DNA of 57,064 nucleotides from Candidatus Lloydbacteria bacterium RIFCSPHIGHO2_02_FULL_50_18. GTDB taxonomy: Bacteria; Patescibacteriota; Minisyncoccia; Phycocordibacterales; UBA6899. Location: NCBI GenBank assembly GCA_001821395.1, contig MHLM01000010.1:1-57064 (forward strand), read 5' to 3'. Positions 7,799-45,591 of this stretch are shown here, one piece after another (position 1 is the first letter of the stretch; every line of letters starts with the position of its first letter). The notes beneath the pieces were generated by a model, which saw only the letters and a list, made by a program, of their open reading frames with translations, searched no databases and was not told the origin of the DNA. The translations under genes were made by a program, and so were the position numbers.

Positions 7799-7912
7799 AT
7801 CCACATTTTTCAAACCCTACACCACACCGATCTCTTTAACGTGGGCATTCTTCATTAGAAAAACCTGCACATTAAAACATCCACAAAATCAGTACTACGC
7901 GTAGTAAAATTT

Positions 7913-7982
7913 CCAAATTGAGGTGCACCACAAGAGAACTTCATTTTTCTAAAACGGATTACCGTTAAGAAAAATTGGTCGC
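7913..7982. repeat. Intergenic repeat module A, copy 1 (contains the AACGG-ATTA-CCGTT hairpin); second copy at 17087..17151
   Basis: About 65 bp, ~85% identical to 17087..17151 (tgcaccac...acttcatttttctaa[a/g]acgg..taccgttaagaaaaattggtcgc). The stem ACGG/CCGT is conserved and the loop differs (atta vs ggta). Confidence 0.5.
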
Positions 7983-8060
7983 GATGCGAGGCAAAACAAG
8001 AGCACAAAAGTAAACTACGATAAAAGCTTTCACAATTTGGATGCGATTCGGCAAGTGCGC

Positions 8061-8162
8061 AATTTGGGATGAGCTGCGAGGCGACAAGGGGTGCGATGTC
8101 CGAGTGGACATACGTTGAGTATGTTCACCGGACTCGATCCCGCAGACAAAAAAGCAGATCGC
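8061..8162. repeat. Intergenic repeat module B, copy 1 (15-bp-stem hairpin GTCCGAGTGGACATAC/GTATGTTCACCGGAC); second copy at 17423..17523
   Basis: About 100 bp, >90% identical to 17423..17523 (gggatgagctgcgaggcgacaagggg.gcgatgtccgagtggacatac.ttgagtatgttcaccggactcg.tcc.cgcag...aagcagatcgc). Lies in non-coding DNA between convergent genes. Confidence 0.55.
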
Positions 8163-8178
8163 ACAAATTGCGTGCTTG

Positions 8179-9702
8179 CTACATGAGGAGCTTGCGGACG
8201 TCTTCCGCCTCTTTCGATATCAGCTCCTCCGAAAGATCGATCGCTTCATTGATGTTTTCCATGACCTCTCTGTCTTGAGCAGAAGGGTTCGGTTTTTGAA
8301 ATAAAGCTCCTGCCTGCTCCCCTATCTCCTCACGGAGTGCTGCAAAAATATTTCCCAAACTATCGCGGAGTTCATCCGCCTCACGTTTAGTGAGATACTT
8401 CTCTTTCCGAAACGCTTTTCGCTCATACCATAAATATCCGATCAGGAACGCAACAAGCGCAATAAGGAAAATGTTAGCGATAAGCGACCAGTCTGTTGGC
8501 TTTGGCGTATCGTCAACGGCGGCTTTTGCCGTCGCGGAAGGAACCTCTCCTTCGATCATAAACTTGCCGTCTACAGGAGTGTAATTCCCCGCTTTGTCAT
8601 AAGCCTTGAGCGTGGCGGAGTGCTCACCGGGTGTCTGGTTCGCTAGTGTATATTCACCATCTTTGATCTCGGCTAAGAGTATCTTTATCGGATTTCCCGC
8701 ATCAATGACAACTTCATAACGATCGATCCCCGACATCGTATCGGTTGCGGAGAATTTCATCTTTACATCGGTAGAAGAAGCGGGGACGGTAATATCCAGC
8801 GTGAATTCCGGTGGTGGCGTCTTGTCGACCATGATCTTTTTGTGCGTCACCGGACCCCAACCTCCTTCATTTTGATACTTCAAATGAAAGTACATCACCC
8901 CGTCGGTGAGTTGATCGAACTCCTTTTCATTGATCGCCGGATCGTAGCTCGTCTTAGGATCGGTCTTGGCACTCTTGTCGAGATCCATGCGCACGACCAT
9001 CACATCTGGCGGCAACTCCCACAAGAACCTTGCTTTGGGCGCATTGTAGTAAAGAGCCTCATCAGGATGAGATGTAGAAGTAACGTCCGGAGCTTCAGGT
9101 TTCGGTCCTAATGAGCCTACGTCGCCGCCCGAAGGAGCGGGAGGTGGTGGGGTGTTACTTGGAGCGGAGGCTGACACCGTATATGTGGCAATGCTTTTTG
9201 TACTTAAAATATCCGTACCTTTTCCGTCCGCCGCAAGTACAGAGCCCGTCGTGAAGGTGACATCGCTTTTCCCTTCTTTGACCCCCTTCAACGTGATGGT
9301 CAATATGGTCTTCTTTCCGGTAAGCCCGATCGTTCCCCCTCCGCCAAAGCTCAGTTTTCCTTCAGCGTTAGCAATGGTCGGCTCTTCCGGCCAGAATGAG
9401 AATGCTGAACTTGCCTTCGAGACACTTTCGAATGAAAGAATATTCTTATCAAAATTGATGACGGCATTCGCCGAGTTGAATGGTGCCGGCGACTCAACTG
9501 CAACAGTCACCGTAAGCGTCTTCCCTACCCCCATCGTTCCCGAAGGTGGACTGAACGAAAGCACCGCGCCCGTCGTCTGCACTTCTCCCGCCTGTTGCGC
9601 GAAAAGAATGCCCGGCGTACCGATGACCGCAAGTACGCAAAGGAAAATTCCAATAAGGCGTCTAGTAAGTGAGCGATGCATAAAGGTATGGCGGAGGAAC
9701 AT
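8179..9702 (-). CDS. Membrane-anchored surface protein: signal peptide, cohesin-like beta-sandwich domain, Pro-rich linker, C-terminal TM anchor, cytoplasmic coiled tail
   Basis: The ORF-track start at 9708 is GTG; ATGs at 9702 and 9681 both give MHRSLTRRLIGIFLCVLAV-type signal peptides. The N-terminal region GKTLTVTVAVESPAPFNSANAVINFDKNILSF...GKLSFGGGG...ILTITLKGVKEGKSDVTF matches the cohesin pattern. C-terminal hydrophobic stretch WSLIANIFLIALVAFLIGYLWY. Confidence 0.55.
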   Translation of the reverse strand: MFLRHTFMHRSLTRRLIGIFLCVLAVIGTPGILFAQQAGEVQTTGAVLSFSPPSGTMGVGKTLTVTVAVESPAPFNSANAVINFDKNILSFESVSKASSAFSFWPEEPTIANAEGKLSFGGGGTIGLTGKKTILTITLKGVKEGKSDVTFTTGSVLAADGKGTDILSTKSIATYTVSASAPSNTPPPPAPSGGDVGSLGPKPEAPDVTSTSHPDEALYYNAPKARFLWELPPDVMVVRMDLDKSAKTDPKTSYDPAINEKEFDQLTDGVMYFHLKYQNEGGWGPVTHKKIMVDKTPPPEFTLDITVPASSTDVKMKFSATDTMSGIDRYEVVIDAGNPIKILLAEIKDGEYTLANQTPGEHSATLKAYDKAGNYTPVDGKFMIEGEVPSATAKAAVDDTPKPTDWSLIANIFLIALVAFLIGYLWYERKAFRKEKYLTKREADELRDSLGNIFAALREEIGEQAGALFQKPNPSAQDREVMENINEAIDLSEELISKEAEDVRKLLM

Positions 9703-10224: not shown

Positions 10225-10410
10225 ATGATCAAAAAGTACAATTAACTAGTAACCCCAGCCTCCCTAAAACAAATTTCTAAAAGTTGTTCGGGCGAACATT
10301 TTTTATCAGAAAAAAATGTTTTAGCCCAAAATATTTACCACGGTAGAGTTAGATACATTATACGTGAGTTTACGAATGATGTGCAATGCATATGTGAACA
10401 AGAAGTGGAT

Positions 10411-10603
10411 ACCGCTCGGGTAATAACTTTTCGGAGCATATTTGCCCGCTGAGAGCGGTCGGGCAAAACCATCCTCAATATGAATGCCGCTTGCAAGGCC
10501 TAGCGGACCAAGCCATTCATCTGCAGGGGCAACTTTGTTTTCTTAAAAGCGTAGCGAATGAGAAATACAAGAAGTACCCTTGTGGCGCTCCGAAAGTCTT
10601 ACT
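10411..10603. repeat. Intergenic repeat D, copy 1 (candidate structured element); second copy at 23466..23671
   Basis: A ~120-bp core (CCGCTT..GCCATTC.TCTGC.GGGGC.ACTTTGTTTTCTTA...AG.GAAT.AGAAA.ACAAGAAGTACCC.TGTGGC.CTCC.AAAGT) is ~85% identical to 23555..23665. It carries the internal hairpin tttgcccgctgagagcggtcgggcaaa. Both copies sit immediately upstream of minus-strand genes. Confidence 0.5.
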
Positions 10604-10654
10604 TTCGCGTTCAGAGAAAATGCTTTGATCTTCACCCTATGAAGAAATAGATTT

Positions 10655-16514: not shown

Positions 16515-16949
16515 TTATAATCGTGTGGTGAACTCGTCAGCGTGCGATGACACATGGCCTTCTACCGGCGTGTCACGTTTCCAGTCAAAATAAAAATTGA
16601 GCGAAATGAGCATGAGCAGGAGCCCCGTGATACCAAAAAGCACATTGAGAGTAATGCGATCGTTGCCGGAGAGGAGCGCCTGTTCACGGAGCGCGAGGTC
16701 TTGTTCACGCATCGTGAGCGACTTATCCTTTTGGTCGAACTGTGCGGCCAACGCATTGTATTCATTCGGTGCGACCGTTCCGGCGACCCCGATGATGCCG
16801 GCAATGTTCTCCGTTGCACGAAGCGCAATATTTTTGACTGGCGTCAAACCGGACAATGAAAGTTGTGCAAAAACAGCGATCATTACAAGAAGAAGTGCGG
16901 CGTATTGCACTGCTACTTTTGTATTCGGTTTATTCTCCCAAATGGCCAT
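16515..16949 (-). CDS. Small membrane protein (hypothetical), 2 TM helices plus a coiled-coil
   Basis: ATG-started ORF with hydrophobic segments. Co-oriented with the upstream FGE gene, 7 bp apart. Confidence 0.45.
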   Translation of the reverse strand: MAIWENKPNTKVAVQYAALLLVMIAVFAQLSLSGLTPVKNIALRATENIAGIIGVAGTVAPNEYNALAAQFDQKDKSLTMREQDLALREQALLSGNDRITLNVLFGITGLLLMLISLNFYFDWKRDTPVEGHVSSHADEFTTRL

Positions 16950-17086
16950 ATAGCGTCATTTTATGGCGAAAGTCGAGTCCAGTAAAGGTCTTTCACGCAC
17001 TGATCGTGCTAAATTTTAAAAAAATTAACCAAACGTTATACCATCCACAATTAACCATTTCCGAATAAGTTTCCAAGGAGAGACCT

Positions 17087-17151
17087 TTCAAGGCACCACC
17101 GGGAGTACTTCATTTTTCTAAGACGGGGTACCGTTAAGAAAAATTGGTCGC
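17087..17151. repeat. Intergenic repeat module A, copy 2
   Basis: See copy 1 at 7913..7982. Confidence 0.5.
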
Positions 17152-17222
17152 CAAGGACTCACCTTTGAAGCTTTCAGCATCAGAAAGAGTTAATTGGGGA
17201 TGGTATTTTTTTTTCGCTAGCC

Positions 17223-17279
17223 GATGACAAATATGCAGCTGTGGGCAAAGTCCCACTACTGCGTATTTGCTTTGGCGTC
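17223..17279. repeat. Hairpin module C, copy 1 (conserved flanks gatgacaaat / ttgctttggcgtc; stem atatgcagctgtggg/cccactactgcgtat; loop caaagt)
   Basis: Paired with 17544..17600. The flanks and the caaagtcc segment are conserved, while the stem sequences are entirely different but remain complementary in both copies. This is compensatory variation. Confidence 0.5.
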
Positions 17280-17422
17280 TCCAGTAAAAACTTTCATAAT
17301 TGGGATGCACCACGGGGGCACTTCCAATTTCATACTCCCTTCGGTCGGTGAAATTTAGGTCGAAGGACGAGGTGAAATCTAATCGTACTTTTTTATAGCA
17401 GAAGTACTCGAAAAAATACGAT

Positions 17423-17523
17423 ATTCGGGATGAGCTGCGAGGCGACAAGGGGGCGATGTCCGAGTGGACATACTTTGAGTATGTTCACCGGACTCGCTCC
17501 CCGCAGTCAACAAAGCAGATCGC
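17423..17523. repeat. Intergenic repeat module B, copy 2
   Basis: See copy 1 at 8061..8162. Locus 2 carries an extra ~115-bp insertion upstream that is homologous to 27238..27289. Confidence 0.55.
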
Positions 17524-17543
17524 CCGAATTTCGTATTTTAACC

Positions 17544-17600
17544 AATGACAAATTCATAGCATCAGACAAAGTCCAGATGCTATGAATTTGCTTTGGCGTC
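17544..17600. repeat. Hairpin module C, copy 2 (stem attcatagcatc/gatgctatgaat, 12 bp perfect)
   Basis: See 17223..17279. Confidence 0.5.
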
Positions 17601-17727
17601 GTGATGCTTTCAAATTGAGATGAAGAACGAGTTGAAATACAGATTTTGCTAGCAAGCCTTACTCCTGTAAGGTGAGGCGCAAAATCTGTATTTCAACGAA
17701 GTAATTCGCTCAATTTGGAAACATCAC
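17601..17727. repeat. About 127-bp imperfect palindrome with a perfect 18-bp inner stem (ttgaaatacagattttgc / gcaaaatctgtatttcaa) overlapping the stop codon of 17724..18788
   Basis: Outer arms gtgatgctttcaaattgag... / ...ctcaatttggaaacatcac are imperfect. The inner arms at 17631-17648 and 17678-17695 are perfect. No U-tract follows on either strand. Confidence 0.5.
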
Positions 17728-18788
17728 CCGAAATAGAAGAAGAGGATCAATAGTCCCACAATGATCGCAAACAATAACCCGATCGCCACTGCCGCCAAAC
17801 GCGAGATACCTCGCGCACCGCGCACCGCTCCCCCTCCGCGTGTACCCACCACTCCCGCTAACTGTCGACGCACATAGAGGCGGATCAAGACGTAGAGCAC
17901 GAGAATGAATGTGAAGAGTCCTCCAACGACCGGCCCGATGATGTTCATGGGGAGTATCCAGAATGATGTCACCGAGGAAATGGTCTGATTCCCTCCGTCA
18001 ACGAGAGGGATGACGAGCGCGACGACCGCCTCGAAGTGTCCGATCACAAATCCTTCAGGCTGCCACTTTACCTCATACTTTCCCGTACTATTCGGGGAAA
18101 TAACGTATGCGGTCTCATTGACGAGCAGTGATTCGACCTTCTTTCCGAACATATCGGTGATGTCGATCAAGCCTTGCGGTCGAGAAAGCGTATTCCCTTT
18201 ATTCTCCGCTTCAACGGTAAAGATCACGTTTGGAGAGCCGTAAATGAGCTTGTCGGTGAGGAATGCACGCATGCGTGTGTCTTCTTTGACATCACCCGCC
18301 ATTTGAAAATGAAGAATAGCCCCAATGTCAAACCCGACGGCAGAACCCTCCTTGAGATCGGGCGGTTTCTGCGTCAGAAACAATCCCGCAAGGTGTGAGC
18401 CGGGGCGCGCGTCAGCGGGAAATTTAACGGTAAAATGCAGCGTCGCACTACCGCCGGCAGGAACATCGAGCATTGATTCTGAATACGTGATCCACGACGC
18501 GAGCTCGGTCGCATTTGCATCGGCACCCTCCACGTAAACCGGCTGATGATCTAGAGCGATGGTGGCAATGTTCCGGGCAACGGGGTATAGCACAGTCCCC
18601 TGGTCGCCGCGATTTTCGACACGCATCGAATATGAGTGTTCCGAACTCGGCTCAACCTTATCTTCGATCGTCGTCGGGGAAAGATTAAAACTCACCTTAT
18701 TTTGCGCGAAGACCGCAAACGGCGTCATCAGCATGGCGGAACATGCGACAACAACAGCACCTCTTAATATCGTATTAGATCTCAACAT
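17724..18788 (-). CDS. Surface protein with signal peptide, beta-rich ectodomain, C-terminal TM helix and Arg/Gly-rich tail (DUF916/DUF3324-like architecture, assigned from memory)
   Basis: Signal peptide MLRSNTILRGAVVVACSAMLMTPFAVFA and C-terminal FWILPMNIIGPVVGGLFTFILVLYVLIRLYVRRQ. Paralogous to 24432..25817 and 25838..27109, which share the FWI(I/M)PW...TM motif. Confidence 0.5.
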   Translation of the reverse strand: MLRSNTILRGAVVVACSAMLMTPFAVFAQNKVSFNLSPTTIEDKVEPSSEHSYSMRVENRGDQGTVLYPVARNIATIALDHQPVYVEGADANATELASWITYSESMLDVPAGGSATLHFTVKFPADARPGSHLAGLFLTQKPPDLKEGSAVGFDIGAILHFQMAGDVKEDTRMRAFLTDKLIYGSPNVIFTVEAENKGNTLSRPQGLIDITDMFGKKVESLLVNETAYVISPNSTGKYEVKWQPEGFVIGHFEAVVALVIPLVDGGNQTISSVTSFWILPMNIIGPVVGGLFTFILVLYVLIRLYVRRQLAGVVGTRGGGAVRGARGISRLAAVAIGLLFAIIVGLLILFFYFG

Positions 18789-19033: not shown

Positions 19034-20185
19034 CTAGAAGATCGGAGTACAGACGTAGGTGATAACGTTGTTGTAGTCGACAGCGGCTTCCTGGAGTGCG
19101 GTGACCTGTACGCGATATCCGACACGTGTCTTTCCGATGTTGTCAGTTGTTCCATCCGCAACAGCATTATGATAGAGCACGGTTCGTGTCGACGTCGCGG
19201 TAAGTCCGGCATAGAGCGACGTACCAAAGGCATCTGTTGGAAGCGATGAATCTTCAGATGTCACACCCATATGTCCATAGGTCTCGGTAACTCCAAGAGT
19301 TCCAGCGGGTGTCGTCCATGCAACAGGGGCACCAGTCACCGCTTCATTGTCCTTAAACGCATTAATGTTCGCACCATTTGCTGAGGTAAGATCCTGGTTT
19401 TCAGTGATCGTCACAGAGAAGCCATTGAATGCATTCGTCGCTACGGTGATGTCTTGCGCTGCTATTGAGGATGTACCGACAGAGATGACACCGAACCCAA
19501 TAGCAGTTGCTGATGTTGAGGTCGACGTCGTATCACCATTTATCATAGAACTTGAAGCAACGCCGGCAATCGTAAAGGTCAAATTAGTGTCGACGATGGC
19601 GGTCATAGTGACGGAACTAATGATCGCGATGCGTGTATCTGCGGCATCAGTCATGGTGCCGTTTATACGAACAACATAGGATCCATTCGTACCATTGACG
19701 ACATGCGCATTGGAGATATTCACGAGAATAGCTCCTGCGGCGATAGAATCACCAGTACATGTAGTAAATTCTATATAATCGGGATTGGTGCCTTGATTTG
19801 AGGCATATATCTCATCTGTACCCCCCGCACACGCACCGATATTTGCAACCTGAGTAAGACCACCACCGGTACGTGAAATATGCACATCGGTACCGAGGGC
19901 CACCGCAGAAACATCAAAAGTATTCCCGGTCGGATCAAACGTGATGCGTGTTGTGGATCCGGTAGAACCACCGATGGGATTTACGGTCGTGAATCGCACC
20001 ATATAGTTAGTAGAAACCGATGGCGCTGATGAGGACGCGGTTGCGCTCACAGACAGCAACTGCGACGCAGATGCAGTATTAAAAAGAAACGGGAGGCCGA
20101 GTGCCCATGAAAGGGTTGCGACGACGAGGGTCGTGGCGAGCCACTTCATACGAATTAAAGAACGAAATGCGCTTGTGTAGTCCAT
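19034..20185 (-). CDS. Secreted Ser/Thr-rich beta-rich protein, paralog 1 of a tandem triplet (conserved N-terminus ASQLxSVSATASSSAPS..TNYMVRFTTVN and C-terminus ITYVCTPIF)
   Basis: About 60% identical to 20608..21765 and 21805..22980 over the full length. Signal peptide present and 4 conserved Cys. No recognised domain; the WxL-like idea is unconfirmed because no W-x-L motifs were seen. Confidence 0.6.
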   Translation of the reverse strand: MDYTSAFRSLIRMKWLATTLVVATLSWALGLPFLFNTASASQLLSVSATASSSAPSVSTNYMVRFTTVNPIGGSTGSTTRITFDPTGNTFDVSAVALGTDVHISRTGGGLTQVANIGACAGGTDEIYASNQGTNPDYIEFTTCTGDSIAAGAILVNISNAHVVNGTNGSYVVRINGTMTDAADTRIAIISSVTMTAIVDTNLTFTIAGVASSSMINGDTTSTSTSATAIGFGVISVGTSSIAAQDITVATNAFNGFSVTITENQDLTSANGANINAFKDNEAVTGAPVAWTTPAGTLGVTETYGHMGVTSEDSSLPTDAFGTSLYAGLTATSTRTVLYHNAVADGTTDNIGKTRVGYRVQVTALQEAAVDYNNVITYVCTPIF

Positions 20186-20390
20186 AGTGTGAACTTTTAT
20201 TTTGATAACGAATAACGGCTTGCAAAATTGGAGAATTTGCAGCGGGAGAAAGTGAAGCGTCTATGTTCTCATCGTATGCATATTCTTTGTGGGAAGAATA
20301 TGCGGATCGCCTAGAACACTTCTGTTATTCGCGAATGGGATGTTTTGTGTTGTTCGCTGTTTGGTTAAACATCGAACTCACCTGTCGTTA

Positions 20391-20523
20391 ATTATACAGT
20401 ACCTGTGGAAAAACAGTGCGCTAACGGTGGATAACTGTGGATAACTATTAACGAGAACCATACTTCCACTGTAACAGAGGGGTGTCGGACCACAGCATTA
20501 ATTCAACTTTTGTTATCCACAGG
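20391..20523 (-). promoter_or_regulatory. Promoter of paralog 1: a -10 TATAAT (plus-strand attata at 20391-20396) directly abutting a conserved ~45-bp element with three direct TGTGGAWAA-like repeats, plus an inverted TTATCCACA at 20513-20521
   Basis: The element cctgtggaaaaa.agtg....aac.gtg.ata.ctgtggataact (20402-20446) is near-identical to 23362-23406 and lies at the same distance from a TATAAT in both copies. The -35 is poor, which suggests activator dependence. Confidence 0.5.
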
Positions 20524-20547
20524 AGTGGACAACTTCCCCACAACAAA

Positions 20548-20592
20548 CAAAATACCCCGCCATATTGAAATAGGGCGGGGTATTTTATTTCT
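20548..20592 (-). terminator. Rho-independent terminator after paralog 2
   Basis: Hairpin aataccccgcc atattgaaatag ggcggggtatt, with a T-rich run on the minus strand, 16 nt after the stop at 20608. Confidence 0.6.
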
Positions 20593-20607
20593 TCTAGTAA
20601 ACTAAGA

Positions 20608-21765
20608 CTAGAAGGTAGATGTGCAGACGTATGTGATCTGGTTCGTGTAGTCTGATGCAGCCTCCTGCAATGCCGACACTTGAATACGGAATCCAACCCG
20701 AGTTTTACCAATATTCGCCGTGGTACCATCAGCAGGTCCAGTGTGAAAGAGGATTGTACGCGTCGATGTCGACGAAAGCCCTGCATAAAGCTGTGAGCCA
20801 AAGTCGTCACCGGGAAGCGATACGTCTTCCGAAGTAATACCCATATGCCCGTAAGTATTTGGACTACCGATCGTTCCCACTGGTGCTGTCCAAGCTGTCG
20901 GCGAGCCGGTCACTGCATTCCCATCCTTAAATGCATTGATCGTTGCGCCATTTGCCGAAGTGAGATCCTGATTTTCGGTCACCGTAACACTAAAGCCGTT
21001 CAACGCATTAGTTGAGACCGAAACATCCTGTGCTGCAACAGAAGAGGTTCCAACAGAGAGTGTCCCGAATCCAATTGCGGTCGCAGTACTCGACGTCGAA
21101 GTCGTATCGCCGTTCACGGGGGAACTCGACGCTACTGTGGCGATAGTAAACGTTAGGTTCGTATCGACGATTCCCGTCATGGCAACCTGATTAATGATCG
21201 CAACGCGTGTATCAGCGGAGTCAGCCATCGTACCATTAATCCGTACGACATACGATCCGGATGCAGAAGGATTCACGGCATGTGCACCAGCTATATTTAC
21301 CGTTATAGTACCGGCAGCAATGATATCCCCGGGGCACGTTAAAAGCTCTACATAGTCGGATGCACCTGCAACGACTTGAGACACATACATTTCGCTCACG
21401 GCTCCCGAACACGATCCGAATGCAGCAACCTGCGTAAGACCTCCAGTTAAACGAGAAACTGTTACATTGCCGTTCGTAAGCGCAGTGAGATCAAAGAGTC
21501 CGCCTTGGGGATCAAACGTGATACGCGTTGTCGAAGCCGTAACTGCCTGCCCTATTGCATTCACTGTCGTGAATCGCACCATATAGTTTGTCGCAATGGA
21601 AGGCGCTGACGACGATGCGGTTGCGCTCACAGAATTTAGCTGTGATGCGTAAGTCGGAGTGAATAGCTGGAATGCCGGAAATATCCAACCGACCATTGCG
21701 ATGATGATCGCGGCAGAGATGACTCTCGAGCTCATGAGATGCAATGATCGGTTGTAATAGTTCAC
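20608..21765 (-). CDS. Secreted Ser/Thr-rich protein, paralog 2 of the triplet
   Basis: See paralog 1. Only 39 bp separate it from paralog 3 upstream, so the two are probably co-transcribed. Confidence 0.6.
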   Translation of the reverse strand: MNYYNRSLHLMSSRVISAAIIIAMVGWIFPAFQLFTPTYASQLNSVSATASSSAPSIATNYMVRFTTVNAIGQAVTASTTRITFDPQGGLFDLTALTNGNVTVSRLTGGLTQVAAFGSCSGAVSEMYVSQVVAGASDYVELLTCPGDIIAAGTITVNIAGAHAVNPSASGSYVVRINGTMADSADTRVAIINQVAMTGIVDTNLTFTIATVASSSPVNGDTTSTSSTATAIGFGTLSVGTSSVAAQDVSVSTNALNGFSVTVTENQDLTSANGATINAFKDGNAVTGSPTAWTAPVGTIGSPNTYGHMGITSEDVSLPGDDFGSQLYAGLSSTSTRTILFHTGPADGTTANIGKTRVGFRIQVSALQEAASDYTNQITYVCTSTF

Positions 21766-21804
21766 AGGTAATTCTTATTGGTTGAATAAATAGACACGAG
21801 AAAG

Positions 21805-22980
21805 TTAGAAGATCGGCGTGCAAACGTACGTGATCTGATTGGTATAGTCTGTCGCTGCCTCCTGAAGTGCGCTGATCTGTACGCGGAATCCAACGCGCGT
21901 TGCACCAACATTTGCAGTCGTTCCGTCTGCGGGTCCGGTGTGATAGAGAACGGTACGCGTCGATGTCGCAGTCAGTCCGGCATAGAGCTGGGTACCAAAT
22001 TCATCAGCATCACCGACAAGAGTGGCGTCCTCTGAGGTAATACCCATATGACCATACGTATTTGGACTACCGATCGTCCCTGTTGGATCGGCACCCCAAG
22101 CTGTCGGTGAACCAGTCACCGCATTCCCATCCCTAAATGCGTTGATCGTTGCACCATTCGCCGAGGTAAGGTCTTGATTCTCGGTCACGGTGACGCTAAA
22201 ACCATTCTTCGCATTCGTTGAGACCGAAATGTCCTGTGCCCCGATAGAAGAGGTTCCAACGGAGAGGGTCCCGAATGGAATAGAGGTTGCCGTAGAGAGC
22301 ACATTGGTTGTGTCACCGTTCACCATAGAGCTTGAGGCAACAAGGCCGATCGAGAAGCTGAGGCTACTGTCGACCGAAGCGGTCATCGTGACGGTACTCA
22401 CGATCGCTACGCGGGTATCCCCTGTATCCGTCATCGTGCCGCCGATGCGCACGACATAGGAGCCGGTTACTGCGGGATTCGTGACGTGTGCATTCCTGAA
22501 AGTTACCGTTATAGCACCCGCTGCGATAACGTCCGTATCGCAAGTTTTAAATTCGACATAGTCAGCCGGCTCTGTTTTTCCAATGCGATCTACATAAATT
22601 TGACTAGCGCCACCGTTACACGCCGCAAGATCAGCAACTTGCGTCAACTCGGCCCCCGTAATTACAATATCGGCAGTGCTCGTTGCCAAAGAAGTAAGAT
22701 CGAAGGAATTTCCCGTAGGATCAAAAGTAATACGTGTTGTTGAAGCAAAAGTTGCTGCAGCACTACCAATTGCATTCGCAGTGGTAAATACGACTGCATA
22801 ATTCGTGGAGAGCGATGGTGCGGACGAAGACGCCGTCGCAGAGACCGACGCAAGCTGTGCTGCCGATGAAGTATTAATAAGAAACGGAATACCGACTGCC
22901 CAACCGATAGTGGCGGTGAGAAGTACGATTCCGAGCCCTTTCAATCGGGCAAGATATCGAAACATGTGTGTGTAGCTCAT
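21805..22980 (-). CDS. Secreted Ser/Thr-rich protein, paralog 3 of the triplet
   Basis: See paralog 1. Ends ITYVCTPIF. Confidence 0.6.
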   Translation of the reverse strand: MSYTHMFRYLARLKGLGIVLLTATIGWAVGIPFLINTSSAAQLASVSATASSSAPSLSTNYAVVFTTANAIGSAAATFASTTRITFDPTGNSFDLTSLATSTADIVITGAELTQVADLAACNGGASQIYVDRIGKTEPADYVEFKTCDTDVIAAGAITVTFRNAHVTNPAVTGSYVVRIGGTMTDTGDTRVAIVSTVTMTASVDSSLSFSIGLVASSSMVNGDTTNVLSTATSIPFGTLSVGTSSIGAQDISVSTNAKNGFSVTVTENQDLTSANGATINAFRDGNAVTGSPTAWGADPTGTIGSPNTYGHMGITSEDATLVGDADEFGTQLYAGLTATSTRTVLYHTGPADGTTANVGATRVGFRVQISALQEAATDYTNQITYVCTPIF

Positions 22981-23350
22981 AAAGAACTAGTGGGATAAAA
23001 AACATCAAGTTGACGAAACTATGCGCAACGATCCACGAATTCTTGCTCCAACGTTCAGAAACTTGTTGTGACACGCACCTGCATGTCCTCGTTTTCCTCC
23101 GTCAGCGCACGCAGTCTGTGGATCATTATTCACAAGTTTTGCAACTTGGTGGGATGAATAATGGCAAACTGAACATTCCAACAAAAAATGCGCTATTCGT
23201 TCTTCTTCATCGGCGAGTGCCGAGAATAAGCCGAGACATTAAAAAACTTGTGGATCGTTTTTCAATGCAACAATTGGGATGGTGATTCCTCCTGTACCGT
23301 CGTCCTCGGAGTGTGGATATCCGAGAATACATAGAATGCACCTAGTATTT

Positions 23351-23406
23351 ATTATAACCTGCCTGTGGAAAAAGAGTGGACAAACTGTGAATAGCTGTGG
23401 ATAACT
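23351..23406 (-). promoter_or_regulatory. Promoter of paralog 3: a -10 TATAAT (plus-strand attata at 23351-23356) abutting a second copy of the TGTGGAWAA-repeat element (23362-23406)
   Basis: Same architecture as 20391..20446. Further TGTGGAT copies occur at 23115-23124, 23249-23258 and 23312-23321 between this promoter and the start codon. Confidence 0.5.
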
Positions 23407-23465
23407 TTCGCTCCAGATTTCACTATTTGAAAAACACATCATCAATTTTTCCAGCAAAAAATTGT

Positions 23466-23671
23466 GATTCCGCTCGGCGGGTCTGCTTCACCAAGAGGCG
23501 AAGACCATGCCAGACCCAGCTGCCTCCGCGAGGTTTTTCAAACAGTGAAACCCTCCGCTTCACAGAGTACATCGACCGAGCCATTCGTCTGCGGGGGCGA
23601 CTTTGTTTTCTTATGAACGAAGTGAATTAGAAAAACAAGAAGTACCCCTGTGGCACTCCCAAAAGTTTATC
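23466..23671. repeat. Intergenic repeat D, copy 2
   Basis: See 10411..10603. A flanking direct repeat c.ctccatagggagg occurs twice (23680-23692 and 23737-23749). Confidence 0.5.
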
Positions 23672-23775
23672 CTCGCTCCATAGGGAGGAACAACACCGTC
23701 GCGGTCCGTAGCCCCTCGAACAGTAATACCTCACTCCATAGGGAGGTCATTATTCATTCACTTATACCGGCCCTC

Positions 23776-24054
23776 CTATCGAAAAAGAGAGTCGTGTGAT
23801 CCCAAGTCAACGAGGAGAAGTACGAGTATACCCTCGTGCTTCTGATACACGAGCAGTATGTCATTCCCAACGTGGCACTCGCGATAATTCTTTAGATCAC
23901 CAGAGAGTTGATGGTCACGATACCCGGTTGAAAGCTTTTCTCCGACGGCAAGTGCGTCAATCACGACATCGAGATCATGCTGAACAAAATCCTTGTGCCG
24001 CAAAATCCGCTTGTATGCTTTTCGATATGCTTTTGTGGAGCGAACAATATACAT
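23776..24054 (-). CDS. relE: RelE/YafQ-family type II toxin (mRNA interferase)
   Basis: HQLSGDLKNYRECHVGNDILLVYQKHEGILVLLLVDLGSH matches the YafQ/RelE C-terminal catalytic region. 92 aa, 2 bp downstream of the antitoxin gene. Confidence 0.75.
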   Translation of the reverse strand: MYIVRSTKAYRKAYKRILRHKDFVQHDLDVVIDALAVGEKLSTGYRDHQLSGDLKNYRECHVGNDILLVYQKHEGILVLLLVDLGSHDSLFR

Positions 24055-24056
24055 AC

Positions 24057-24332
24057 CTAGCGATTGCCAAGAATGTCATCGTGCAATTCTTTTGCGGTAC
24101 GGTATGAGGGACCATGCTTGAGTGCATACTCTGCCTCCTTGATCAGCTGTCGTTTCTTCTTCGTCGGCCAGTAGTCGGCACTGACGACGGGAAACGGTAT
24201 CGCCTGTTTATTGACGACTTGGGTAAGATACAATTTCACCCCGGAGGACATATCGAGTCCCATTGCACTAAATGTTTTTTGTGCCAACTCTTTTGTTTTT
24301 TTATCAATGCGGATTTGTAGCGTGGTATTCAT
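24057..24332 (-). CDS. relB: RelB/DinJ-family antitoxin
   Basis: MNTTLQIRIDKKTKELAQKTFSAMGLDMSSGVKLYLTQVV is typical of DinJ/RelB. The ORF-track start at 24338 is TTG; the ATG at 24332 is preferred. Confidence 0.75.
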   Translation of the reverse strand: MNTTLQIRIDKKTKELAQKTFSAMGLDMSSGVKLYLTQVVNKQAIPFPVVSADYWPTKKKRQLIKEAEYALKHGPSYRTAKELHDDILGNR

Positions 24333-24359
24333 GGGCAAAGTGTACCCTCCCTCTGTTTG

Positions 24360-27109: not shown

Positions 27110-27237
27110 ACTTCTTATTATAGAGTACGTTTGCGCAGATAAGCTGGGGACAACTCTAGAGTTCAACAAATAAACCCCAACTTCTTTGTTGCGGTGCCCA
27201 TGCGACTCGGTCAACGTATATGAATACGTCTTCTCCC

Positions 27238-27289
27238 CTACGGGGACTTCCAAATTCATACTCCCCATGGTCGTTGAATTTCTGGTCGC
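27238..27289. repeat. Intergenic repeat module E (homologous to 17309..17367)
   Basis: ctacggggacttccaaattcatactcc.catggtcg.tgaatttc.ggtcg is ~80% identical to the segment inserted in the 17-kb repeat locus. Confidence 0.4.
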
Positions 27290-27367
27290 TCGTCGCTTTT
27301 CCCGCGCCTCGCATCTGGGGTTATTTGATGAACTCCTACGTTTGATAGATGTTTGCATACGGAATAT

Positions 27368-30300
27368 TTAGAACGTCGGAACGACGAGGTATATCAGTCT
27401 TACCGAATAACTTCCCGCGGGCTGGGCGTTCCTCACATCAAGCCGATAGACCATATTCGCGACATCAGCGGTAACCGGTCCAGAATTGTACATGACCTCT
27501 TCGAGTGTTGTAGAGGCGAACGGAGCGTATGTATCATTCATCAGAAAACGCGTCGAGCCCGCTCCCAGCGTGTCATCCCCCGCATGATATCCGAAACATC
27601 CGGAGAGCGTCCCGGGACAGGCTGTCGCCCAATCGAGCGGAACCGCGTTCGTACTTTCCACGTCGGGAATATCTCCAACGGATGCAGTGAACCGGCCATC
27701 TGTGCCCAAAAATACCTGATACCCATTTTCCGCATTCGTCGTGACCGAAAGTTGCTGTGCGGCGGTCTTCCCCGTCCCCGGAGTAATGGTCATGAATGAG
27801 GTTTGTGTCGGCGTCGTTCCCACATCGGTCGTCACCCCCTCCGTCACCGTCGATGTCGCGAGCCCGGAAATACTGAACGAGAGCGTCGTGCCCTCTACGG
27901 AGAGCGACGGATAGCTCGCGAGCGCTGCGAGCGGGACCGGGCGATTGTGATTCACATCGTACGCGCGGAAGAAGTACGTAGTATTGAAATATGCACGACG
28001 CCCGATGATCGTGAATTCGTATTCCGTTGCGGTCGACGCCGGCGCATAAAATGTCGTCGTGTTCGTCGCCGACTCATTATGTGTACCATTCGCAGCGGAG
28101 TCGGAGAGTACGCGCGCGGTGATCGGATCATTATTGGTATCAACTCCGTTCCCATAGCACCACTGTGACATCGCCACACATGTCGAGGTCGACTCAACGT
28201 AATTCACATTCGTGGAAAAATCAGAGTAGGTTGAGAATTGCAGACGGAATTTCTGATTCGGGCCCATCGATGCATTGGTCTCGTTGATCGTGAGACGGAG
28301 TTTGATCGTGTTGCCGTTCGCGACATTTGACGGTGCGACGATCTCGCCCGCACCCGAAAGCGATACGGATGGATTCGCACTGGTCTCATCATCATACCAA
28401 TGCCATTTTTTCTCCTCGGGCATAAAACCGCGCGTCGTGATGACGGGGTAAAAATCGTAACTGAAAAGCGCACTACCGTCCGATTTTGTCATTCGGAAAC
28501 AGTACGGCGTATTCGTCGCGGCATTATTACTCTGAATATTCCAGTCATATTCAACATCATTTCCCACGATCACCGCAAATGGATTCACTGCCGTCGGATT
28601 GGATTCCTGATATGTTCCTGCGGAATCAGACACTGAGAGGAGCACGGTGCCCCCTGGTGGAGGATCTCCTCCTGCAAGCTGTGCCCCATCGGTAATAGTT
28701 GGTGCGTTGTATCCTCTCCAAAGTACACCCGAGGCAGGAGCGCCAAGATCGGTCCACGAAGCGACCGCTCCGCACGAGGTCACTTTTTGCGCGAACTGCA
28801 AATTGAATTGCGTCGATGACGCGGTCATCGTCGTGGTCGCGACCTTGAGTGACATGCGCAGGCGTATGCGGTCCCCATTTGCGGGAGGATTGTCCGCCGC
28901 GGTGATCTCCGCATTCTCACCAAGATTTCCCAGACCCGATGGCCACGCGACGGTCGGGGTGAGCGCACCATTGTCCTGATAGAGTCGGAAATAATTTTGC
29001 GTAAATGTCGGGACCAAAAGCTCTTGATTCGCGTCGTAGGTCACGACCACGATATTCGCGAATGATGCCAAGTTTGCCTGACTCTTCGACTCATTGATCT
29101 CGATAACGCGCTCATTCCATAAAATAGTATTACCGTTCGAGAACGTCGATGATGCGATCGGGGCGAAATAGGTTGAAACATACGCTTCATTCAATGTCGC
29201 GTTGGTATCGACAGACTCTTGCACCACAGTAGAAGAGCCATTCACGCCGATGGTAAGATTTCCGATAGCAATATTCGTTGCCTGTGAGTGCATGAACTTC
29301 GTCTCAAGATATGCGCTCCGGTATGTCTTTGTCACTGTCTCGGGAAGATCGATATATGCAGGTCGATTATTGTAATCATTCGCTATCGCATCGAGTCCTT
29401 GCTGAGCGGCCGAAAATGTCACCGTCTGCGTTTGCGGACCGCCAAATTTTCCGCTCCACGTGAACGTGAAATATACCTCGACCGCCATCGGGGCCGCGCC
29501 AGCCGTATACTGCTCGGCCCCTGCAATCGCAGTTGCGGCGGTAAAGAAATTTTCCGCCTTGTCGGACAGATCGAATATCAAATTGAAATCATCACCCGAA
29601 CGCGGATTCACACCACCGATAGTAATGGCGCGTGAAACTTCCGACGATGTCCCCACCTTGCCATAGATAGTGATATTCGCAGTCGAGGTTGCTGCCACAT
29701 GCGCCTTGAACCACACATTCTGCATTGAAAGCCCCGTGTTCGATATGGTCATCGTTGTCGTAGGAAATTCACTGCGTGCGTTCCCCGGAGTGGAGGTCGC
29801 GTCCTGATTCATAAAGTAGCGCACTGTTTCTGTTTGTGCTGCCGCACCAGTCGAGTAATTGTACGTCACCACGAGTTCACCACCCAAGGCGTTCATCGGG
29901 ATAGTCCCCATGAGGACATTAAATTTCATGGTTGCATTGCGCTGAAAATTAGGACTTCCCACCGTGGGACGCCAGATGGCTGTCTTTGTGTTGTCGTCGG
30001 TAAGTGCTTCTGTCCAATTGTATGCAGTTGATGTCGCATTCCCCCCACTCCCACCCTGAATACCGATCTGAAAAGTCGATGCAGCCGCAACAGTGTCAGT
30101 CTCTCCGTGTATCTCTACATACACATCAACAATGTCCGCATCAGCAACGGCATCGGGTGTCGTCGATGTTGCTAGGAAAGAACAAGTTGTCGCCGCCGCA
30201 CATGCGGTGCTTCGTGTTCCGCGATCACCTGCGACCATTGAGGATAGCGGGAATCGTACTGTCTTCGTTTCCGTGTGTGGAACGAGCGAAAAGTTTTCTT

Positions 30301-35295: not shown

Positions 35296-35907
35296 ATGTT
35301 GTGGTATACTGTAAGAATGGTACATATTCCAATAGCTATCGAGAAGGAGAAGATCTCGGTGTTCTCGCGAATGTACGTCGGATCGATACTCGGAACATTT
35401 CTTGTGGGAATGCTGCTCGGAGTTTTTGCGACTGGCAATTTCAATGTTGGCCTCCCAATAAATACGTCTCGGCAACTCGCCGGTGTCGGAGAAGCACTTT
35501 CCGAAGACGGTGCTCTCACCGTATTGCAGAACGAAACTCCTATTGTGATGAGCGCAGCAGAAGACGCTACCGTCGACGAGACACTAGGCCTGGATGGCAT
35601 CGCTCTGCCTGCGACCCTACTCCCCTCACCCGAGGAGGTACGCACATCATTGAATACGATGATCAATGAGCGGACCGTAGCGGCAGACCGCCTTGGAGAG
35701 GAGATGCTTCGCATAAAAAATGAATCGATAGCATTGATCGAAGGGTTCGATCAGAATTGTGCTAATTGGAATGACGCATGTGCAGCTCCATACAAAGAAG
35801 CGCTTGATAAGAACAATGCAGGGTATGAGCGCCTCGTACAAACGCTTGCCACATGGAATCAGGAGATAAGTGACGCCCGAGCTACGCTCGCGCTCACGAC
35901 AGAATAA
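35296..35907 (+). CDS. Hypothetical membrane-anchored protein. The true start may be downstream (ATG at 35317 or 35371), because a TTGCAT-N17-TATACT promoter overlaps the ORF-track start.
   Basis: ORF with one TM helix (MYVGSILGTFLVGMLLGVFA). No family recognised. Confidence 0.4.
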   Translation: MLWYTVRMVHIPIAIEKEKISVFSRMYVGSILGTFLVGMLLGVFATGNFNVGLPINTSRQLAGVGEALSEDGALTVLQNETPIVMSAAEDATVDETLGLDGIALPATLLPSPEEVRTSLNTMINERTVAADRLGEEMLRIKNESIALIEGFDQNCANWNDACAAPYKEALDKNNAGYERLVQTLATWNQEISDARATLALTTE

Positions 35908-35924
35908 ATGTATTGCTCGCACAA

Positions 35925-35955
35925 AAAACCCCGCACTTACGTGCGGGGTTTTTTG
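35925..35955. terminator. Bidirectional rho-independent terminator between the convergent genes 35296..35907 and 35973..36281
   Basis: aaaaaa ccccgcac ttac gtgcgggg ttttttg. Confidence 0.7.
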
Positions 35956-35972
35956 TATGTTGGATCGCAATA

Positions 35973-36281
35973 TTAATTGCGTTCGCGCCACTCGCGGCGC
36001 TGTCCACCTTGAGCACCACCCGCTGGGCGGTCCTCCTTTGGGCGGGCAATGTTCACTGTGAGCGTACGCCCACCGAACTCTTTGCCGTGCCACATATCAA
36101 TAGCGGCATTTGCCTCAGCCTCCGACGCCATCTCGACGAAGCCGAATCCGCGTGAGCGGCCGGTCATTCGATCGGTGACGATCGACGACGAAACCACGGT
36201 GCCTGCTGATGCAAATGCATCACCGAGCTCCTGATCTGTCGTTGAATAAGGTAATCCACCAATGTATAGCTTTTGAGCCAT
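35973..36281 (-). CDS. RRM-type RNA-binding protein (glycine/arginine-rich tail)
   Basis: RNP-2 LYIGGL and RNP-1 RGFGFVEM motifs. Confidence 0.85.
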   Translation of the reverse strand: MAQKLYIGGLPYSTTDQELGDAFASAGTVVSSSIVTDRMTGRSRGFGFVEMASEAEANAAIDMWHGKEFGGRTLTVNIARPKEDRPAGGAQGGQRREWRERN

Positions 36282-45109: not shown

Positions 45110-45199
45110 AGGCTCTCACAATTTTTTTGTCAGCGTTGACAACGGCAGTCCGGATGCAACTACGATATCCTTCGTCGACCTGTGCCGGATAACATACAG

Positions 45200-45232
45200 A
45201 AAAAAACCGCTCCTTTCGGAGCGGTTTTTTAG
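45200..45232. terminator. Bidirectional rho-independent terminator (after the csp gene)
   Basis: aaaaaaa ccgctcc tttc ggagcgg tttttt. Confidence 0.7.
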
Positions 45233-45241
45233 ACTGGAGTC

Positions 45242-45439
45242 TTATGCGAGCTGCACGTTGACTGCATTCTTTCCTTTTGGAGAGTCCTCTACTTCGAAGG
45301 TGACTTCCTGTCCTTCGCGAAGCGCGTCGAACTCAACACCTACGAGACCATTGCGGTGAAAGAACAGATCCTTGTCCATTCCTTCTGCAGTGATAAAACC
45401 AAAACCATTCTCCTTCTTTGTCTTTACAATACCCTTCAT
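45242..45439 (-). CDS. Cold-shock-domain protein (CspA family)
   Basis: [16 protein letters not shown]...GQEVTFEV. The preferred start is the second ATG (45439); the ORF track began 7 codons upstream. Confidence 0.8.
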
Positions 45440-45591
45440 ACGTTTATATTTATTGACCAACTAATATACAAAATAGAGCTCTAGAAAATCGACTTATTCC
45501 AAACAAAAATTTTGTGTTTTCAGGATAGCAATTCCACGGCAAAAGTCAATAGGCATCCAACTTTCCCCAAAAAGCTATATAATAGTGGGAT

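Follow-up and report, generated by a model that had tools for sequence, protein, structure and literature searches.

Hairpin modules that fill intergenic gaps on contig MHLM01000010.1 of Candidatus Lloydbacteria bacterium RIFCSPHIGHO2_02_FULL_50_18, a groundwater member of the Parcubacteria (CPR), are intergenic palindromic/hairpin repeats at gene 3' ends, with membership of neither the BIME nor the Correia families. Module C folds into a hairpin that covaries between copies and is restricted to a single locus; the modules are patchily present among relatives and anchored at stop codons, and those other than C fold better on the + strand. We tentatively favor, at somewhat less than an even chance, a lineage-specific hairpin mosaic that is BIME/Correia-like in behavior, with C as a terminator-type hairpin whose base is recognized and whose apex is free.

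The genomes of CPR/Patescibacteria are small and, as a rule, dense in coding sequence. In the window (the whole 57,064-nt stretch of DNA analyzed), the locus of interest is a gap of 774 nt whose borders in the initial annotation, the - strand genes 16515..16949 and 17724..18788, agree with the ORF list. The flanking genes encode secreted/surface-type proteins (cohesin, dockerin, Ig-like and WxL-like domains), a TldD/PmbA pair and HSP20 (Pfam), and the same locus is also found in GCA_001818945.1. The whole gap folds with an MFE of -316 kcal/mol on the + strand (z = -17.7 vs. shuffles) and -292 kcal/mol on the - strand (z = -11.2 vs. shuffles). It forms a chain of long hairpins and contains, in order, the long hairpin H1 with module A at its tip, a run of nine T (T9), the first copy of module C (C1), a conserved 25-nt P motif, module A', a small hairpin, module B, the second copy of C (C2) and H7.

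The left limit of the inserted module cluster is marked by a promoter-like site of the 144-aa gene (TTTACT-17-TAAAAT, 16958..16986, - strand); the block that holds this site, CATTTTATGGCGAAA...CAGTAAAG, is present in the empty site of relative L035 and in all filled sites. H1 (17038..17206, + strand) has 27-nt arms (17038-17064 / 17180-17206) that are 85% complementary, a 3' arm that resembles the P motif (TAATTGGGGATG), and module A (~17094-17155) at its tip. The T9 run (17206..17214), read from the sequence as terminator-like on the + strand, lies directly 3' of H1. The P motif TAAAAACTTTCATAATTGGGATGCA (17285..17309, + strand) is an imperfect inverted partner of the R end (CCAAATTTGGAAGTTTTA). 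Module A' (17307..17366, + strand; GCACCAC-N6-ACTTC, a hairpin, GGTCGA) is a paralogue of segment 27226-27296, and it is followed by the small hairpin GTACT...AGTAC (17385..17407, + strand; sequence and fold). Module B (17413..17539, + strand) is a long hairpin whose basal arms lie at 17413-17429 / 17523-17539; its core (GGGCGATGTCCG...CGGACTCGCTCC) is conserved, whereas its apical hairpin varies. H7 (17601..17727, + strand) comprises a P-like arm (GTGATGCTTTCAAATTGAG), an inner 19-bp perfect stem, the module X core (GCAAGCC-hairpin-GGTGAGGCGC, with a homologous X in L032), AACGAAGTAATTCGC, and an R-like arm, which shares bases with the stop codon of the 354-aa gene.

Several of these modules recur in the window, in agreement with the repeats first proposed for the gap: A at 17103-17151 matches 7934-7982 (92%), B at 17449-17501 matches 8089-8141 (94%; BLAST 94% over 98 nt), and the extra segment with a homologue near 27.2 kb aligns at 17311-17362 vs. 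27239-27288 with a score of 51 (shuffle maximum 24). The A and B homologues belong to locus 1 (7908..8176, + strand; order P'-A-P-B), which ends 3 nt from the stop codon (8179-8181) of a cohesin-domain gene, and the A-type module A'' (27226..27296, + strand) lies behind the stop codon of a 1777-aa gene. A repeat with an A-type head (GCGCCACAAGGGTACTTC...) occurs upstream of the HSP20 gene (10500..10640, - strand), and the repeat comparison gave a paralogue of it at 23570-23680 (- strand).

Module C was said to occur twice, and it does: C1 (17220..17279) and C2 (17541..17600), neither assigned to a strand, lie within a direct repeat (17218-17279 / 17539-17600, 71% identical) and score 84.9 and 93.8 bits, respectively, with the covariance model described below. 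The flanks attributed to both copies are exact for ATGACAAAT (9 nt) and ATTTGCTTTGGCGTC (15 nt), except that the g placed at the head of the former is g in C1 and a in C2; the common loop CAAAGTCC is found in both. The lower helix of C1 combines GCCGA/UUGGC with CAAAU/AUUUG, the two being separated by a G-C pair that has a bulged A and a U.U mismatch on its flanks; its upper helix of 13 positions (ATGCAGCTGTGGG / CCCACTACTGCGT) carries the loop CAAAGT. C2 repeats this lower helix (CCAA/UUGG and CAAAU/AUUUG around the G-C pair with its bulged A and U.U) below an upper helix of its own (TCATAGCATC / GATGCTATGA), and the inverted-repeat search gave 15-nt arms for C2 that are 100% complementary. 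Also upheld was the statement that the stems are different yet self-complementary: the 13-nt arms differ while each copy pairs, and the 32-nt stem-loop cores are identical at only 16/32 positions, with the loop giving much of that identity. The folds of C1 and C2 reach -32 and -27 kcal/mol (z = -5.8 and -6.5; 0/200 shuffles as good), and the pattern ATGACAAAT-N20-45-ATTTG occurs twice in the window vs. 0.05 times expected.

Synteny through TldD and the 354-aa protein led to four further copies of C in two sister species. Each of them sits at the orthologous intergenic position and is oriented alike; L024 has three (the variant C0 and one clear orthologue each for C1 and C2), and L031 has one. 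There are thus six distinct copies across three species, at a single orthologous locus and in one orientation. Across these copies C is ~55-60 nt long and an almost perfect DNA palindrome, with the lower helix CCRA/UUGG, G-C pair with bulged A and U.U, CAAAU/AUUUG, and an upper helix of 7-13 bp that is free in sequence, keeps its complementarity and ends in a small loop. The bulged A and U.U mismatch are kept in 5/6 copies, variant C0 differing at this pair. The six-copy alignment extends the 5' flank to ATTTCGYA(TTT)TA-RCCR-ATGACAAAT. The spacer between the flank half-sites is 20, 30 or 32 nt, a variation that fits recognition of a folded hairpin base rather than of B-form DNA half-sites.

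The initial annotation had proposed that copies sharing these flanks be collected, aligned and examined for covariation, and that additional copies with non-complementary stems would speak against a selected structure; all four added copies keep their pairing. In the alignment of six sequences, which include two orthologue pairs, both sides change at 11/23 pairs and 91.7% of cells are paired (31-42% in slid registers), values reached by 0/500 shuffles. Between the window and L024, C1 changes from GTGGG/CCCAC to GCGGG/CCCGC and from U.G to C-G, and C2 changes at three adjacent pairs (AGC/GCT to CAT/ATG), with two further changes that repair mismatches; not one Watson-Crick pair is broken between the orthologues. 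The L031 copy shows a symmetric TC/GA addition. The compensatory pattern is therefore real and extends to orthologues, but the selected RNA structure for which it had been called classic evidence is not established by it, since C is a near-perfect palindrome without strand bias and symmetric block changes may come from palindrome-templated repair. Substitutions in blocks could reflect mutation (template switching in palindromes) instead of selection.

A covariance model built from the six copies and run with filters off over the 57-kb window and 82 kb of relatives recovered no C copy outside the orthologous site; its best outside match (27 bits) is a canonical terminator at 20533-20606 on the - strand (AAAAUA-stem-UAUUUUGUUUG). 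The exact pattern GACAAAT-N-AAAGT-N-ATTTGCTTTGG gave only chance matches in viral contigs, GTDB species genomes and JGI metagenomes, collections from which the carrier genomes are evidently absent; these matches were rejected, having no comparable hairpin or belonging to a promoter palindrome from the human gut that is unrelated to C. Nothing came up when viral sequences were scanned for P, for A and for a relaxed form of the C pattern, and blastn of the locus against phage and plasmid records gave no match. Rfam 15 yielded 0 matches at gathering score over the whole window; in E-value mode, there was nothing at the module loci in the whole window, and only miRNA-shaped chance matches (E ≥ 0.22) in 16900-17780. 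The tRNA/tmRNA search found none.

Some other identities for C were considered. A small ORF starting from ATGACAAAT was rejected (in-frame stop at codon 5 of C2, no obvious ribosome-binding site), as was a box C/D or k-turn motif (the 3' strand has UU where GA is required). The stem arms, taken as guides, had no match elsewhere in the window or in the relatives, and the flanks and loop, taken as antisense seeds, gave only chance-level 9-10-mers within the 57 kb.

The remaining modules follow a comparable design, in that families A, B and X share the logic of C (conserved junctions and a variable apical helix that is still paired). The P motif (TAAAAACTTTCAYAATTKGGRTRYA) has 8 instances in 4 genomes, always in one orientation. 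Four units, 134-190 nt in length, have P (TAAAAACTTTCAYAATTKGG) paired with R (CCMAATTTGGAAGTTTTA) along ~20 nt; when folded, these four P..R units form single long hairpins with U4-6 runs 3' of the stem on both strands. Their ends resemble terminal inverted repeats (TIRs), start and end with TA, and surround a short non-coding body, as in MITEs. A promoter scan read TTGGCG(17272)-17-CATAAT(17300), which overlaps the P motif, as promoter-like. P as a plain sigma-70 promoter is doubtful, given that it has no conserved -35 element and pairs with R, and an invertible promoter is unsupported, all eight P motifs sharing one orientation.

The modules have a mosaic distribution among relatives. In 6/6 cases, module clusters or P..R units begin 0-3 nt from the stop codon of the opposite-strand gene. 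At the orthologous spot the window holds A, C1, P-A', hairpin, B, C2 and H7; L024 holds a gene for an APH-family kinase, then C0, P, C1, hairpin, C2 and hairpin; L031 holds the APH gene, then C, P and B'-R; and L023, L032 and L033 hold P'-A-X and P-B'-R without C. The sites of L035, L036, L030 and L034 are empty, with intergenic spacers of ~63-126 nt. Occupancy is patchy: filled sites go with a 354-aa protein at 100%, 83% and 71% identity, and empty sites with one at 79%, 73% and 59%. Only in L024 and L031 does the kinase gene lie inside the module cluster, adjoining a C copy. Elsewhere, a P-A unit interrupts B at its apex in locus 1 of L024, and a P..R unit stands behind a Big_6 gene in L031 and is missing in L024 and the window. 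Junctions of filled sites fall at stop codons (TAA followed directly by AAACTTCC), where a TA duplication is inseparable from the A/T-rich ends. The C flanks are 100% identical across species in which the neighboring 354-aa protein is just 83% identical, and the A core is 95% identical at 71% protein identity. This near-identity of flanks and A core beside proteins at 71-83% identity, with stems that have diverged, points to a constraint that acts on the hairpin bases and not on the stems. The existence of sister species without any of these elements means that no essential function is implied.

Strand preference separates C from the other modules. For C there is no bias (summed MFE -159.7 on + vs. 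-160.4 on -; 4 G.U vs. 4 A.C cells), whereas the non-C modules favor the + strand in both stacked G.U pairs (43 vs. 23) and total MFE (-962 vs. -893 kcal/mol), and each of the four P..R units folds better on + by 4-22 kcal/mol. This modest evidence suggests that the non-C modules may be under RNA-level selection on the strand convergent to the flanking genes.

In the mosaic that we favor, C would be one module type among A, B, C and X, enclosed by inverted P/R ends, and the whole would have arisen through insertion, duplication and recombination immediately after the stop codons of genes for surface proteins. The mosaic occurs in a few Candidatus Lloydbacteria species, the same sites being empty in sister species. 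The modules would be putative transcribed intergenic palindromic elements, with the long P..R hairpins and C as candidate transcript-end structures, their A-rich 5' and U-rich 3' flanks resembling those of bidirectional terminator or RNA-stabilizer hairpins. Such hairpins may punctuate or insulate the convergent surface-protein gene, the promoter of the next gene, and any small + strand RNAs of the cluster. The invariant base of C (bulge, mismatch and flanks) would be read by a protein or a polymerase, whereas the apex need only pair. We infer that the modules may be transcribed, act as terminators or insulators and have a protein partner. C has the shape of a terminator, given that the best outside match of its model is a canonical terminator and that its 3' flank is AUUUGCUUUGG; this shape, the position between a stop codon and the next promoter, and the cross-match of the model to a terminator favor a transcript-end hairpin. 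The invariant base suggests that some protein or polymerase reads C. The tail AUUUGCUUUGG has an interrupted U-tract (6 U in 11 nt) and the adjoining helix is A-U rich, unlike the canonical terminators of this genome, and a terminator scan of the window did not call C. Ordinary terminators need no invariant flank of 9-15 nt and no conserved loop.

A possible but doubtful account holds that the C copies are sibling small-RNA genes: each C plus a conserved leader of ~25 nt (AAUUUCGCAUUUUAGCCAAUGAC) would form a ~75-nt + strand RNA, with the single-stranded leader, loop and tail serving as seed or protein-binding sites and the variable stem as terminator only. P (with CAYAAT as -10) would then act as promoter, the cluster would correspond to tandem families such as the LhrC, Qrr or csRNA siblings, and discrete 60-90-nt + strand RNAs with a 3' end at AUUUGCUUU would be expected. 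Fixed flanks and loop with a free stem are indeed the conservation pattern of sibling sRNAs, but the 'seed' (CCAAUGACAAAU) is for the most part base-paired to the 3' flank, and matches to it within the 57 kb are chance-level 9-10-mers, with no complementary target. A P motif lies 25 nt upstream of C1 in L024, a degenerate P (GTTAATTGGGGATGG) lies upstream of C1 in the window, and TTGGCG/TTGGCA/TTGGTG stands 17-18 nt upstream of CAYAAT at three C-P junctions; against this, 3/6 C copies have no P directly upstream, the conserved P block spans ~-22 to +10 without a conserved -35 element, and the pairing of P with the R end marks it as a stem arm rather than a promoter. Modules within each locus are all co-oriented and the non-C modules fold better on the + strand, yet C itself has no strand bias and the elements are missing from sister species. 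That lack of strand bias is what would be expected of DNA, and it is unlikely, though conceivable, that C and perhaps the P/R ends are DNA-level hairpins, i.e., single-stranded or cruciform sites for a recombinase or HUH-type transposase encoded elsewhere (REP/RAYT-, IS200/IS605- or attC-like), which would account for the insertion, shuffling and gene capture seen here. Presence/absence polymorphism and mosaic rearrangement between close relatives, the kinase gene beside C inside the cluster of L024 and L031 only, the TIR-like P/R ends that begin and end with TA, and a helix whose conserved base carries an extrahelical A and a mismatch and whose terminal structure varies (as in attC/IS608-style recognition) are all consistent with it. 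However, Pfam detects no transposase, integrase or HUH protein among the window's main ORFs or the called genes at the relatives' loci (for the latter, in precomputed labels), nor any reverse transcriptase, Nop/Tas protein or RAYT-type transposase among the window's main ORFs; C is undispersed (two copies in 57 kb at one locus, none extra in 82 kb of relatives); there is no GTAG head, no RYYYAAC/GTTRRRY core and no clean target-site duplication that can be defined; and the stems differ between copies, unlike those of recently mobilized repeats. A recent burst of identical mobile copies is unlikely because the stems have diverged.

Two further accounts fare worse. That the modules are neutral palindromic debris, left over from local duplications (inverted and tandem) within a surface-protein island prone to recombination, and that their pairing is upheld mechanically by quasi-palindrome template switching without function, is decidedly improbable. 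The symmetric block changes (three adjacent C2 pairs, the TC/GA addition in L031), the sister species without elements and the absent strand bias of C are in keeping with such an origin. Debris of this kind, however, would not conserve flanks, and here flanks and P motifs are identical across species at 71-83% identity of the adjacent protein while the stems between them diverged; template switching would also 'correct' the bulged A and U.U mismatch, which are nevertheless kept in 5/6 copies, and the non-C modules favor the + strand. The idea of a guide-RNA array of the TIGR-Tas stem-loop type, or of another programmable system in which variable stems, set between conserved repeats, carry the specificity, seems extremely remote. 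CPR bacteria are one lineage with TIGR-Tas systems (PMC12045711), whose arrays have stems that are 'variable but consistently palindromic' (PMC12045711), and of the three C units in L024, two are separated by 103 nt; the likeness lies in CPR hosts and in a tandem arrangement where conserved sequence alternates with palindromic stems that vary (Faure et al. 2025, PMC12045711). Module C differs from TIGR-Tas (PMC12045711) in having no Tas/Nop protein near the locus (Pfam), no box C/D motifs and no dual loop spacers: its loops are 6 nt, not ~40 nt with two 8-12-nt spacers and box C/D motifs, its 3' strand lacks the GA needed for a k-turn, its stems match nothing in the window or relatives, and 1-3 units are too few. 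These missing defining features largely refute a TIGR-Tas array.

Comparison with known repeat families places the modules close to, and outside, each of them. As to a REP-like family, which had been offered as the alternative to a selected RNA, the extragenic position, the location at gene 3' ends and the mosaic behavior agree, but there is no GTAG-type head, no dispersal and no RAYT in the window. BIMEs/REP of enterobacteria are extragenic hairpin units just after stop codons that form mosaics with other short motifs; they are transcribed in 3' ends as RNA stabilizers or terminator-like structures, and their content varies between related strains. The modules described here are likewise extragenic, located at stop codons, arranged in variable mosaics and different in content between relatives. 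In contrast to the near-identical REP, C stems are unlike between copies and C occupies one locus rather than hundreds; the C flanks (CCRATGACAAAT / ATTTGCTTTGGYGTC) bear no GTAG-type head, and the sequences are unrelated. True REP/RAYT membership is disfavored by the restriction of C to one locus, the lack of a GTAG head and the lack of a detectable transposase in the window. Correia elements (Neisseria) and other bacterial MITEs have inverted ends, long hairpins, promoter/terminator-like hexamers and insertion polymorphism. The P..R units resemble them in size (~130-190 nt), in imperfect inverted ends of ~20-30 nt beginning and ending with TA, in their long hairpins and promoter-/terminator-like hexamers, in being gene-adjacent and in insertion polymorphism between relatives. 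They differ in that a clear TA duplication is not demonstrable, copy number in the sampled sequence is low, and the interior consists of exchangeable structured modules; C, apart from its own helix, lacks terminal inverted repeats.

Like rho-independent (bidirectional) terminators, C is a stem-loop with A-rich sequence on its 5' side and U-rich sequence on its 3' side; its stem covaries in orthologues, and its model cross-matches a terminator of the same genome. C departs from them in its interrupted U-tract, its A-U-rich adjoining helix, its invariant 9-15-nt flanks, and a largely conserved loop and bulge/mismatch that terminators do not need. A fixed base, an extrahelical base and a loop on a covarying helix of variable length also recall the IRE, phage coat-protein operators and integron attC sites, although C has no sequence similarity to these and its recognition is putative. 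The attC core sites RYYYAAC / GTTRRRY are absent from the C flanks, and there is no integrase in the window (Pfam). The APH gene beside C in L024 and L031 is the only feature suggestive of attC.

We also consider, as rather unlikely, that modules A, B, C and X constitute an undescribed CPR-specific structured-RNA family with a protein-recognized invariant base, a freely evolving apical helix and + strand transcription convergent to surface-protein genes, in which C would represent sibling regulatory RNAs, or processing/recombination hairpins that assemble the mosaic islands. If true, this would be a new RNA- or hairpin-DNA-based system tied to cell-surface gene variation in episymbiotic bacteria.

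Non-coding gaps of 0.4-0.8 kb filled with conserved hairpin modules thus occur in a CPR genome among genes for secreted/surface proteins (cohesin, dockerin, Ig-like domains). The locus offers, in compact natural form, a test of whether a near-perfect palindrome covaries through RNA selection or through DNA mechanics. Should the modules be transcribed, a Lloydbacteria lineage would have non-coding RNA modules without an Rfam family, and these could show how transcripts are ended, stabilized or insulated in such organisms. Should they be mobile DNA hairpins, they would point to a hot spot of recombination, one that has taken up a kinase gene as well.

In the annotated record L007, which contains a region matching the window, the gene table places 'genes' at window positions 10321-10635, 17134-17488 and 23423-23750. 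These entries coincide exactly with three of the module-bearing non-coding loci, and while they span 315-355 nt, their products are just 27-31 residues long.

A 103-nt repeat pair (10500-10640 and 23570-23680, both on the minus strand; 81-85% identical) begins on that strand with an A-type head (GCGCCACAAGGGTACTTC / GTGCCACAGGGGTACTTC), after which comes a hairpin. One of the two copies is in the 478-nt spacer upstream of an HSP20 gene, a position in which it could serve as a 5'-UTR element; in L024, a sister-genome locus with module C, the HSP20-upstream repeat is not conserved.

Three tandem paralogous genes of 383, 385 and 391 aa (19034-22980) share 62-82% DNA identity, and the array is kept in relatives; a Pfam search with the three gave no match. 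The upstream regions of these paralogs harbor two clusters of DnaA-box-like nonamers (20404-20521 and 23117-23404), each with five occurrences of TTATCCACA at 0-1 mismatch, some of them contained in a 78-nt repeat (20369-20446 and 23329-23406, 76% identical). Over the whole window such nonamers are not above chance (15 observed vs. 10.8 expected), and their grouping into two clusters despite this total is striking. ATCCACA is found before module A at both module loci (locus 1, 7908..8176; locus 2, 16950-17727). The 815-nt non-coding region at 22981-23795 adjoins a RelB/YafQ toxin-antitoxin pair (23776-24338; 4451-5013 in L007). Repeat families D3-D5, D7, D14 and D18 correspond to an internal 1755-nt duplication, 74-84% identical, in a 1777-aa ORF (27368-32701).

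The exact pattern for the module C flanks and loop also hit seven human-gut contigs (L008, L010, L014, L016, L018, L020 and L021) at another hairpin, a perfect palindrome with 21-bp arms (TTGACAAATAAACGACCGTTTAC...GTAAACGGTCGTTTATTTGCTTTGGAGGAAATG) that overlaps a TTGACA box and is followed downstream by a ribosome-binding site and ATG. This hairpin probably serves one gut species as an operator or attenuator. At 45199-45466 (minus strand) and 35894-35992, Rfam gave matches below threshold, with 29 bits for the cspA thermoregulator (E = 0.0011) and 28-35 bits for Thr/Leu leaders (E = 0.008-0.1); these are probably generic hairpins.

Within the module cluster of two sister genomes there is an APH-family (PF01636) kinase gene (L024, 5203-6168; L031, 6277-7236), neighbored in both by a C copy and a module B remnant. 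The gene is absent from the window, from the filled sites without C (L023/L032) and from the empty sites (L035, L036, L030 and L034), and looks like a gain at the same hot spot as the module cluster.
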